DNA from: an uncultured Pseudomonadales bacterium
GTDB lineage: Bacteria; Patescibacteriota; Microgenomatia; UBA1400; PJMF01
Direction: 5' to 3'
Assembly: GCA_964493195.1 (NCBI GenBank)
Contig: CAZBMX010000001.1
Location: 1-25,510 of the forward strand
DNA length: 25,510 nt
Shown: piece by piece, positions 362 through 25,510 of the stretch
How the letters are laid out: each line of letters opens with the position of its first letter
How positions within the stretch are numbered: the stretch's first letter is position 1
Notes under the pieces: model-generated
Told to the model about the DNA's origin: nothing
The model's input: only the letters and a program-made list of their open reading frames with translations
Databases searched by the model: none
Made by a program: the position numbers and the translations under genes

Positions 362-1759
362 TTACAACAACATTTTCTTAATTCTCCTCCTCCCATGCTG
401 CGCATTACTAAACCGATGCACCTCGTCGCGCACCTGCTGCACCAACTTGAGTGCCGGATGCGTCGGTGGCAGCTTAACTTCCGCATACTCAATTTTTTTG
501 CGCGTCACCGGCCGGACGTCATCAGGGTAGATATTGGGAATGATCAGCCGATCTGGGTCTTTGGCAATTCCAATCACGGGACACTGCCAACCCCACACCT
601 TGAGTACAGCTCGCACCTGCCCTTTGCCACCGTCAATCACCACTAGATCAGGCATCCCCCACCCCCGGTGGTTCTGTCGCCGCGTGAGTGCCTCTTGCAG
701 CATATGGTAGTCGTTGGGAGTGTCCAGCGTGCGAATATTGAACATTCTGTACTGCCCGCTATCCGCTCTGCCCTCTGTAAACACTACCATGCCGACACTG
801 GCCAGCGTTCCTTGAGTGTTGCTGACGTCGTAGCCTTCGATTCTGGTTAGCTCGGCTGTGCGTGGCACGTTGGCGTGCATGCTCAGCAGCGAGCGCAGGT
901 ATGCCCGCCCGTCTGTGGCGATGGTGGCAGTCAGTGCGGCAGTGCTCAGCTCTGGTTTGAGCTTGTAACTGCTGCCGGTAACTTCGGTGATGATGGCAAT
1001 TTTGTCACGCAGGACAGCGGCTTGTTCGAATCGCTCTGCTTTGGCTGCTGCTCGCAGCTGGTCTTGCATGCGTTTGACTACGTCCTTTTTTTTGCCCTTC
1101 AGGAATAGGATGAGATTATCGATAATATCTTGGTACTCGCTGGCGCTGGTTTTGCCCAGACAGACTCCCGGACATAAATCGATGTGATACTCAAAGCACG
1201 GTGTGAGGTCATGCGGATTGTATCCCTTGGCGCACCAGGGGAAGATGCTGCGGGCGATCTTGAGAACTTCGTTGACTTTATACGCACTCGGGAACGGGCC
1301 GAGCACCGTACCGGTGTTTTTTTGTTTAACCAGCTCTTTCTTGCGCAAACGTACCACTTTAGGAAAGGTTTCCTTGGTAATGTGGATGTAGAGAGGACTT
1401 TTATCGTCCTTGAGTAATACATTGGAAGGAGGTTGATATGTCCGGATAAGCTCTGCCTCGGTGAGGAGCGCTTCTAGCTCACTCTCGAGCACTTTCCACT
1501 GTACCTTGCTGGCTGTTTGCACCATGGTGCGGATGCGGCCATTGAGGCGTTTGAGCTGTGTGTAGGAGGTAACCCGGCGCTTGAGGAGCTTGGCTTTACC
1601 GACGTACAGCACGTTTCCGGCGACGTCGGAAAACCAGTACACTCCCGGCTGCGAGGGCAAGCGTGACAGCACCGATTCCCAGGGCAACGGAGCCCGTGAC
1701 GCTGGTGAACGGCGTGAGGACTTTGGGGCTGGTGGTGAGCTGGGTGAACTCTCGGTCAT
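362..1759 (-). CDS. uvrC: Excinuclease ABC subunit C (short form without the C-terminal HhH domain)
   Basis: GIY-YIG motif LPSQPGVYWF...VLYVGKAK, Cys-rich CFEYHIDLCPGVC, UVR motif ERFEQAAVLRD, and RNase H-like domain RIEGYDVSN, PDLVVIDGGKGQV, QVRDEVHRF. An alternative in-frame GTG start lies at 1672. Confidence 0.95.
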   Translation of the reverse strand: MTESSPSSPPAPKSSRRSPASRAPLPWESVLSRLPSQPGVYWFSDVAGNVLYVGKAKLLKRRVTSYTQLKRLNGRIRTMVQTASKVQWKVLESELEALLTEAELIRTYQPPSNVLLKDDKSPLYIHITKETFPKVVRLRKKELVKQKNTGTVLGPFPSAYKVNEVLKIARSIFPWCAKGYNPHDLTPCFEYHIDLCPGVCLGKTSASEYQDIIDNLILFLKGKKKDVVKRMQDQLRAAAKAERFEQAAVLRDKIAIITEVTGSSYKLKPELSTAALTATIATDGRAYLRSLLSMHANVPRTAELTRIEGYDVSNTQGTLASVGMVVFTEGRADSGQYRMFNIRTLDTPNDYHMLQEALTRRQNHRGWGMPDLVVIDGGKGQVRAVLKVWGWQCPVIGIAKDPDRLIIPNIYPDDVRPVTRKKIEYAEVKLPPTHPALKLVQQVRDEVHRFSNAQHGRRRIKKMLL

Positions 1760-15583: not shown

Positions 15584-15679
15584 CTGTAAAAAAAGATGAC
15601 AATCAAGGTACCTGAAGATCCACTGAGAATGAACGCAAATACGGGAGCTTCATACATTGATTGTCATCTTTTTTTACAG
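15584..15679 (+). ncRNA. Candidate structured ncRNA / hairpin element E1 (unassigned family)
   Basis: A perfect 23-bp inverted repeat (15584-15606 / 15657-15679) encloses GTACCTGAAG (15608-15617), N30 and CTTCATAC (15648-15655). Homologous to E2 at 24669-24770. The right arm contains a T7 tract. Confidence 0.65.
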
Positions 15680-24612: not shown

Positions 24613-24668
24613 TGCACTTGTATGGTATCACGCTAACTACAGGAGCAATTTTTGCTCAGGTAGGTTAA

Positions 24669-24770
24669 AATATCTGCAGTTTTGTGCTGAGGAGAGTACC
24701 TGAAGGCTCACCGAGTGAGAGTGCTAACGTGGAGACTTCATACTCGACGAAGTACAAAACTGCAGATATT
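24669..24770 (+). ncRNA. Candidate structured ncRNA / hairpin element E2 (same family as E1), abutting tRNA-Leu
   Basis: 20-bp inverted repeat (24669-24688 / 24751-24770, one G-U pair on the + strand), GAGGA/GACGA internal loop, then GTACCTGAAG (24696-24705), N30 and CTTCATAC (24736-24743). Confidence 0.65.
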
Positions 24771-24851
24771 GCCGAAGTGGCGGAATGGTATACGCGCACG
24801 ACTTAGAATCGTGTGGAGCAATCCTTGGAGGTTCGAGTCCTCTCTTCGGCA
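24771..24851 (+). tRNA. tRNA-Leu(UAG), CCA not encoded
   Basis: Acceptor stem GCCGAAG/CTTCGGC plus discriminator A, D-loop GGAATGGTA, anticodon arm CACGA-CTTAGAA-TCGTG, long variable arm, T-arm GGAGG-TTCGAGT-CCTCT. Followed by CTG rather than CCA. Confidence 0.96.
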
Positions 24852-24893
24852 CTGGTGATTTTCTTAGTAAGTGAATTTCACAAAAGATTAAAA

Positions 24894-25510
24894 ATGCCAG
24901 AAGTAGATCAAGTTGTTTCTAGTGTTAGGTTGGCTGAGGACGGTGCGTCAGATAGCTATTATCGATTTCTCAAGGAGAAGGAGAACCGAAAACATGCAGG
25001 TCAAGAAACTGACACACTTTTAAGCCAAGAACTTTCATTTGTCAGGGAGGGTCTTGTTATTGCAGATCTATCGATTCTGCGGAAAGAGGGAACATTTCCT
25101 GCATCAGAGCGTTACAGAGATAGATCTACTGCACAGATACCAATTGCATTGTTACATGACATGTTGGATCGTAACGATATGTACGATATCTCTGGCACCG
25201 ATTGGAATGTTCTTGACCAGAAAATTTTGCAGTTTTCCTCTGATAATCAAGCAATTTTAGCACGGTTGGGAATTACTTCAATCTATGATATGGATCCTGC
25301 CGCCGCTGCTACTCTGTGTTACGAGATAGTAAAGTTTTATATGGAACCAGATCAGGAAATGGCTAATCAAATGACAGGTGAGGCAGCATTACTCGCTGAT
25401 AGAAAAACTGCTGACCAGCTGATTATTGATAAAAAAGGCATATGCAGGCATTACACTAAAGTCGCAGTTGCACTGTACAGCAGGTTTAAACAAATAGATA
25501 AATTTGGATA
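24894..25510 (+). CDS. Partial transglutaminase-like protein, truncated by the window end (absent from the ORF track)
   Basis: Open frame from ATG 24894 (MPEVDQVVSS...) to the edge, ending KKGICRHYTKVAVALYSRFKQIDKFG. G-x-C-R-H-Y matches the catalytic-Cys helix of transglutaminase-like proteins. AT-richer than the preceding genes. Confidence 0.65.
   Translation, partial: MPEVDQVVSSVRLAEDGASDSYYRFLKEKENRKHAGQETDTLLSQELSFVREGLVIADLSILRKEGTFPASERYRDRSTAQIPIALLHDMLDRNDMYDISGTDWNVLDQKILQFSSDNQAILARLGITSIYDMDPAAAATLCYEIVKFYMEPDQEMANQMTGEAALLADRKTADQLIIDKKGICRHYTKVAVALYSRFKQIDKFG

Follow-up and report, generated by a model that had tools for sequence, protein, structure and literature searches.

A copy of a rare palindromic repeat family directly upstream of tRNA-Leu in a tiny-genome member of the Patescibacteria

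The inverted repeat E2, which immediately precedes the tRNA-Leu(UAG) gene in the window (the whole stretch of 25,510 nucleotides that was analysed), is a copy of a rare, previously undescribed family of palindromic repeats of about 100 bp present in Patescibacteria with tiny genomes. Genomes in this phylum are very small, with few non-coding elements described so far, and the architecture of the E2 family is opposite to that of the classical small palindromic repeats, the centre being conserved and the ends free. Indeed, E2 combines a conserved, asymmetric module of 66 nt with nearly perfect inverted arms that appear to evolve fast. The explanation that we favour, with moderate confidence, is that E2 is a rare palindromic repeat lying in the transcribed leader of tRNA-Leu, with arms that have grown up to the -10 hexamer on one side and up to the tRNA on the other, and that its release by RNase P would be a by-product of this position. 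The coordinates of the features are given in Table 1.

Table 1. Positions of the features discussed, numbered in the window unless a contig of the source genome is named
Feature	Position	Strand	Remarks
E2 inverted repeat	24669-24770	+	arms 24669-24698 and 24741-24770
E2 left outer arm, 20 nt	24669..24688	+	pairs with 24751-24770
E2 right outer arm	24751..24770	+	final base is tRNA position -1
66-nt module	24687..24752	+	GA/GA loop, P2, CC bulge, P3 and apical region; from L270 and family alignments
GA/GA internal loop	24689-24693 with 24746-24750	+	part of the 66-nt module
P2	24694-24698/24741-24745 and 24701-24705/24736-24740	+	part of the 66-nt module
CC bulge	24699-24700	+	within P2
P3	24707-24709/24732-24734	+	part of the 66-nt module
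Apical region, 22 nt	24710-24731	+	part of the 66-nt module, fixed letters
Putative -10-like hexamer TAAAAT of the tRNA-Leu promoter	24666..24671	+	placed by conservation only; overlaps the first 3 nt of E2
Predicted 5' leader RNA	24678..24770	+	hairpin of ~84 nt plus 8-9 nt single strand; placed from the -10 position
tRNA-Leu(UAG)	24771..24851	+	ARAGORN 24771-24852; Rfam RF00005 24771-24851, 60.2 bits
E1, second copy in the window	15584..15679	+	antisense to the gpmI operon; the final 6 nt of gpmI lie in its right arm
Family copies in the source genome (G000)	C1:15596-15669 (E1), C1:24684-24757 (E2), C49, C32, C21, C133, shortened C60		covariance model

Hairpin E2 and its junction with tRNA-Leu

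Folded as RNA, E2 forms a single rod of -48.2 kcal/mol, a hairpin far beyond chance given that shuffled sequences average -22.1 kcal/mol (z -8.86) and that none of 200 shuffles is as good. Its outer arms comprise 19 Watson-Crick pairs and one G.U pair. Both ARAGORN and Rfam place the first base of the tRNA at the same nucleotide, and CCA is not encoded in the gene. The first-pass annotation had described a repeat that ends exactly at tRNA +1 without any spacer, and had pointed to a GAGGA/GACGA loop around a G-C pair; both descriptions were confirmed, the last paired base of E2 being position -1 of the tRNA (a U, spacer 0 nt) and the loop surrounding one G-C pair as stated.

Several readings of the hairpin were rejected: (i) a kink-turn, the loop being symmetric (2x2 + 1 bp + 2x2) and bulge-free; (ii) an intrinsic terminator, none being called at E2, where the tRNA follows directly and there is no U-tract; (iii) a tRNA-like fold of the core, since ARAGORN detects none.

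The outer 11 nt of the left arm are similar to promoter-proximal sequence in relatives, and the inner right arm resembles the native leader of G002, a genome of the same genus, with a local alignment score of 8 that is matched by 179 of 5000 shuffles. The abutment with +1 is less special than it appears, because five of the 18 arm ends of nine family copies lie at most 6 nt from a gene boundary (the right arms of E2 and E1, both arms of the C49 copy and the left arm of the copy in genome G135). Only this genome lacks a spacer, and the flush junction is a feature of this strain alone, not a design for RNase P.

Copies, distribution and conserved centre of the family

The source genome (G000; 1.05 Mb, 176 contigs, 47% G+C, 87% complete) belongs to an organism found in DNA runs of wastewater and sludge origin. 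BLAST of E2 against this genome gave further partial matches, and the family was defined by motif searching together with a covariance model, constructed from six copies, that detects seven copies in G000 with 27 to 83 bits. Among about 180 related genomes, copies were found only in G002 (n=1) and in G135 (n=1; another genus of the same family), the latter being distant (37.9 bits). Two stricter pattern scans of 185,579 species genomes likewise returned only G002 and G135/L266; a first exact pattern had been too loose, with at least 118 chance matches and the G002 copy as the only real one. The stricter pattern had 16 matches in JGI metagenome contigs, of which the five seen by the covariance model were weak, with broken pairing, and no members were accepted; a pattern scan of viral contigs gave no family match. 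Together with the leader copy of a second lineage (L270), described below, ten copies are known in total.

At the gathering cut-off of Rfam 15 only the tRNA passes and the elements of the window are unmatched, and at E-values up to 10 the elements draw only chance hairpin matches to miRNA models. To our knowledge, none of the hammerhead, twister, T-box stem I, SRP, Y RNA and C/D box RNAs corresponds to them, and no model match was obtained.

E2 is the only copy adjacent to a tRNA, the other eight of nine family copies having no tRNA as a neighbour. With respect to the neighbouring genes, four copies are in sense orientation, two are antisense, one lies between convergent genes and one is in the tRNA leader; seven of nine are situated just past the 3' end of a gene or ahead of the next promoter. 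Presence is sporadic and copy number varies among close relatives. Copies within the genome are only 59-84% identical, which excludes a recent burst. No direct repeats were found around any copy, filled sites substituting for a few native bases rather than duplicating them. The copies have no conserved terminal inverted repeats in common, only the centre being shared, and neither a Y1 transposase (Y1_Tnp) nor a reverse transcriptase (RVT_1) was found in the 87% complete assembly. Given these four results, no means of spreading is shown for the family.

Dispersed imperfect palindromes of about 100-150 bp, occurring in both orientations, are well known: ERIC/IRU, the Correia elements of Neisseria (CREE/NEMIS), RUP and the Rickettsia palindromic elements (RPE). 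ERIC, Correia, RUP and RPE are intergenic or transcribed, form long hairpins as RNA, lengthen ORFs in some cases and differ in copy number among relatives. By description, not by sequence, the E2 family is comparable to them, consisting likewise of dispersed palindromes of about 100 bp in both orientations. However, ERIC, Correia, RUP and RPE have conserved terminal inverted repeats, whereas the ends of the E2 family differ fully and its centre is conserved; Correia elements show a TA target duplication, which the E2 family lacks; and the copy number of the latter is very low (1-7), unlike that of all four. REP/REPIN elements, which are mobilised by RAYT (Y1) transposases, are also doublets that form long hairpins and evolve with compensated arms, but REPINs conserve the arm (REP) sequences and not the loop, while the E2 family conserves the centre and its source assembly (87% complete) yielded no such transposase.

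The centre is asymmetric in all copies and is composed of a short helix, a CC bulge, a 5-bp helix, a 3-bp helix and the 22-nt apical region; the GA/GA loop beneath it is common to five copies. The outer arms (17-24 bp) are unalignable between copies and almost purely Watson-Crick within each. In an eight-copy alignment the named core pairs are paired in 88% of cases, compared with 33-43% in slid controls. Changes on both sides of a pair occur in P2 and P3 at six pairs (11 cells), a level reached by only 1-2 of 500 shuffles, and of the 48 core columns 24 do not vary among seven copies, compared with an expected 15.4 (P ~1e-4). G.U cells outnumber A.C cells by 12 to four in the core helices of the sense strand, a modest hint that this strand could matter as a single strand. 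A coding reading was rejected, the variable columns having no 3-base periodicity, no consistent open frame being present and stops occurring in some copies.

Arms, core inversion and proposed template switching

The copy in the tyrS-recG spacer is orthologous in G000 and G002, with the same flanking genes and a 130-nt upstream flank that is 79% identical. Its core is inverted between the two genomes: identity reaches 78%, gap-free save for terminal overhangs, only after reverse-complementing, versus 60% and numerous gaps when the orientation is left unchanged. The arms have stayed in place; they are alignable, compensated and 63-67% identical, and have thus changed faster than the flank.

At the second copy in the window, E1, the six gpmI nucleotides covered by the right arm are native, being the same in G002, which lacks the element, and the left arm is their exact mirror. 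E1 was not found in G002, G001, L276 and L277. A contig of a relative from run X2, covering 15602-15679, carries a variant of E1 whose right arm differs by eight substitutions and lacks 1 nt and whose core differs by five changes, the left arm lying outside the visible part; this variant points to fast change of the E1 arms between relatives. The C49 copy has perfect complement in place of the GA loop, the stop of a convergent gene is 2 nt from its right arm, and the corresponding site of G002 consists of only 10 nt between two convergent genes. At the same locus (L010, G000:C49, 1489-1590), a nucleotidyltransferase ORF has lost its native stop and runs for five extra codons into the left arm. 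The G135 copy begins at the stop codon of the upstream gene. That arms are nothing but inverted native flank is partly true of E1, E2 and the C32 copy and untrue of the C49 and C21 copies, in which most of the arm does not derive from native flank.

Template switching is described as homogenising the arms of inverted repeats, expanding the repeats and inverting their spacers (PMC8604942, PMC8794818, PMC13100816). Near-perfect Watson-Crick arms, arm extension and inversion of the spacer between orthologues were all found in the present family. The pattern of the arms and the core inversion fit such a process during replication, as indicated by the tyrS-recG core, the Watson-Crick arms, the closed loop of the C49 copy and the E1 arm that mirrors the gpmI stop. 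The published cases and the E2 family are alike in their homogenised arms, growth into flanks, multi-base compensated changes and spacer inversion, but the spacers in those cases are a few bases long, whereas the flipped spacer here is 48-66 nt, structured and conserved (PMC8604942, PMC8794818, PMC13100816). As an explanation, template switching accounts for the arms and for the exact stop at +1, and not for the origin or conservation of the core or for the C49 and C21 arms. The family thereby offers a compact natural case in which to ask whether it is template switching or selection that produces and preserves long perfect stems.

Other observations were made at these loci. The shortened copy (L014, G000:C60, 1501-1557) keeps the GA/GA loop and P2, with a small loop in place of its apical part, and its arms include three G.U pairs on the sense strand; the 489-aa ORF upstream of it has its counterpart in the first half of an open frame of 960 aa in G002. 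In both species, the short ORF for a membrane protein that lies between tyrS and recG is followed by a small, well-conserved hairpin (L013 1340-1385; L015 1345-1390), probably the terminator of that ORF. Furthermore, a (TG)GTATACT box is located 8-9 nt before the ATG of recG and of a DUF2130 gene in G000, G001 and G002 (L013 1585-1610; L015 1590-1615; L012 ~1455-1480), which suggests leaderless mRNAs or mRNAs with very short leaders in this group.

The tRNA-Leu leader, its predicted processing and alternative readings

The leader of tRNA-Leu(UAG) was compared in six lineages, namely the window, G002, L270/L271, L272, L279 and L273, the last four having been reached through YgjP homologues that led to public contigs; the Logan contigs of the second carrier lineage are short pieces. 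An exact-protein look-up of the YgjP protein of the window found it not on record. The neighbouring genes, coding for a YgjP-like peptidase and for holA, are syntenic across these loci. The element is present in two of the six lineages. In L270/L271, whose YgjP and holA are 64% and 78% identical to those of the window, it occupies the same place in sense orientation to the tRNA and scores 76.8 bits. The first-pass annotation had proposed checking whether orthologous loci carry E2 or are empty, and both states occur: L270/L271 are filled, with a 5-nt spacer, whereas G002, L272, L279 and L273 are empty, with 14-27 nt from the -10 box to +1 (14-23 nt in L272, L279 and L273). The tRNA of G002 is 100% identical to that of the window, and its spacer is just 75 nt.

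Between E2 and L270, the 66-nt module is identical at 61 of 66 positions (92%), all five differences being apical, while the arms are 56-65% identical and the sequence upstream of the -10 box is 55% identical. Thus, in this family, the centre has been flipped between species at one locus, and at another the module has been kept while its surroundings diverged. In L270 the right arm stops 5 nt short of +1, and the left arm begins about 36 nt beyond the -10 hexamer. The apical part of the L270 module (~1040-1075, minus strand) forms a perfect 6-bp stem with a 4-nt loop, and its five changes relative to E2 are clustered and look like one multi-base event.

The linkage of the module with tRNA-Leu(UAG) therefore recurs, in only two of six lineages. 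In a YgjP tree L279 is the supported sister of L270 (99/99); the tree could not be used to order the lineages, its backbone being unresolved. The module may have been acquired on two occasions or transferred; alternatively, it is old and three losses occurred, which is also plausible since long palindromes are easily deleted. Two contigs give weak hints at this site, each over 30-34 letters: one from run X2 joins 24652 to 24768, and one from run X5 departs from the window after 24656, keeps the hexamer and continues with 102 unlike nucleotides.

A consensus promoter scan found nothing upstream of tRNA-Leu. A TA.AAT hexamer with A..(N)CAG after it is nevertheless common to all the lineages, L270, L272, L279 and L273 included, and in this genome, in G002 and in the close-strain contig of run X5 it is located 9 nt after a TTTGCT word; the promoter of tRNA-Leu is inferred from this conservation only. 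A start 6-8 nt past the hexamer, at about 24678, would trim about nine bases off the left arm and would lie inside E2, given that the conserved hexamer overlaps this arm. The predicted transcript (24678-24852) folds into an 84-nt hairpin, eight unpaired nucleotides and the cloverleaf, the same order of hairpin, single strand and tRNA as in L270 (hairpin, 5 nt, tRNA). The genome encodes a type-A RNase P RNA (RF00010 at C46:1292-1608, 120.6 bits, above the cut-off). Co-transcription of E2 with the tRNA and cleavage at 24770/24771 are likely in view of this RNA, the U at -1, the conserved upstream hexamer and the same module in the leader of the second lineage. With RNase P RNA present and U at -1, the precursor should lose a leader of about 93 nt by cleavage, like any pre-tRNA, and release of this leader is probably incidental.

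The proposal of the first-pass annotation that RNase P could free a discrete RNA from this locus is thus retained as likely for the cleavage and corrected as to the product: in place of a 102-nt rod, a hairpin of about 84 nt with an 8-9-nt tail is predicted. The start placed from the hexamer falls within E2, a position which that annotation had counted against its proposal. Its alternative, a precise insertion at the 5' boundary of the tRNA, finds no support: the element is situated inside the leader, with arms that appear to have grown to the boundary. RNase P acting beside a tRNA or tRNA-like structure gives an upstream RNA an exact 3' end in pre-tRNA 5' leaders and in the eukaryotic MALAT1/mascRNA system; cleavage at +1 would set an exact 3' end for E2 in the same manner, but the linkage of E2 with the tRNA is limited to two of six related lineages and its upstream product is a predicted one.

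According to the explanation that we favour, the arms of E2 would have been rewritten and lengthened at the DNA level in this strain, most likely by replication template switching, a process able to homogenise and extend inverted repeats and to invert the spacer, and a recent deletion would have contributed. Extension of the arms would have gone on until constrained sequence was met on either side, at the -10 hexamer to the left and at tRNA +1 to the right, and the palindrome would stop exactly at +1 because the constrained tRNA halted its growth. The RNA hairpin would then start at about 24678 and be followed by 8-9 unpaired nucleotides, and RNase P would cut at 24770/24771 and free a leader of about 93 nt that is almost all hairpin. 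The family would be a selfish or near-neutral palindromic repeat, passively transcribed. The conservation of the module (92% versus 55% for the flank), the 24 of 48 invariant columns and the G.U excess run counter to this last step, fitting a selected RNA or single-stranded DNA better than junk DNA; a function of the family is putative and unproven. If E2 is selfish DNA and nothing more, it nevertheless accounts for assembly breaks in this region and for differences between strains at tRNA-Leu.

The same evidence bears on the main alternative, an unlikely one, that the tRNA-leader copy is an RNA gene, driven by the tRNA-Leu promoter, given its 3' end by RNase P and acting in trans as a hairpin; this copy may also be the source copy of the family. 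The same module in the same leader, in sense orientation in two lineages and far better conserved than its flanks, speaks for such a gene, as do the RNase P RNA in the genome, the G.U enrichment of the sense strand and the site-varying constraint. The tyrS-recG copy has no excess conservation (core 78-83%, flank 79%), which would fit one working copy plus decaying copies. However, four of six lineages, including the sister of the second carrier, have no element at the tRNA, in this genome the start is predicted within the left arm, the length of the spacer varies, no reverse transcriptase for RNA-mediated copying was found in the 87% complete assembly, and other copies are antisense to their neighbours or in convergent spacers. 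The locus allows one to test whether bacteria use a tRNA promoter and RNase P for a second RNA. A broader proposal, which we regard as doubtful, is that the 66-nt module represents a new class of structured RNA or single-stranded DNA element under purifying selection, whose principal copy would be expressed from the tRNA-Leu(UAG) promoter, trimmed by RNase P and either seeding new sites or carried into them. If true, it would be a bacterial tRNA-linked element with a site preference, found in the same leader in separate lineages.

It is quite improbable that the hairpin is a cis-acting RNA element with a protein-binding core, serving as a signal for processing, stability or insulation and, at the E2 locus, modulating the maturation or level of tRNA-Leu. 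The position of seven of nine copies past a gene's 3' end or ahead of a promoter, the two-sided changes in P2 and P3 (six pairs, 11 cells, 1-2 of 500 shuffles) and the presence of RNase III in six of six relatives searched would suit this role; in G000, RNase III was not found, its syntenic place falling in the gap between contigs C171 and C165 (reference locus L269, G002:C8). Yet both orientations occur and one orthologous copy is flipped, which alters the loop sequences presented, a U-tract is missing after most copies, so that they are not general terminators, and two-sided pair changes can also be produced by template switching.

Very unlikely as well is a DNA-level site, in which the core, exposed on a hairpin or cruciform, would be recognised by a recombinase or nuclease, E2 being a mobile module with site specificity whose entry into the tRNA-Leu leader took place separately, or through transfer, in two lineages: two gains require fewer events than one gain and three losses on the YgjP tree (with its unresolved backbone), near-identical modules occur in deeply diverged hosts, presence is sporadic with copy number varying between close relatives, and function seems indifferent to orientation, but no candidate enzyme was found, target duplications and a common insertion-site word are lacking, the diverged arms between module and tRNA (65%) argue against a recent transfer of the whole block, and the ease with which long palindromes are lost makes several independent losses plausible too.

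On the 3' side of the tRNA, G+C content falls from about 0.53 to about 0.40 right past the gene (24852-25510), and the contig ends 660 nt further on. The ORF starting at 24894 has no Pfam match, and the trailer of the tRNA is unlike that of all relatives, L270 and L272 having a common terminator-like hairpin there; this region could be foreign DNA integrated on the 3' side of the tRNA. Finally, many closely related MAGs of Patescibacteria (L177, L178, L180, L207 and others) are titled 'Pseudomonadales' or 'Gammaproteobacteria', an apparent naming error.
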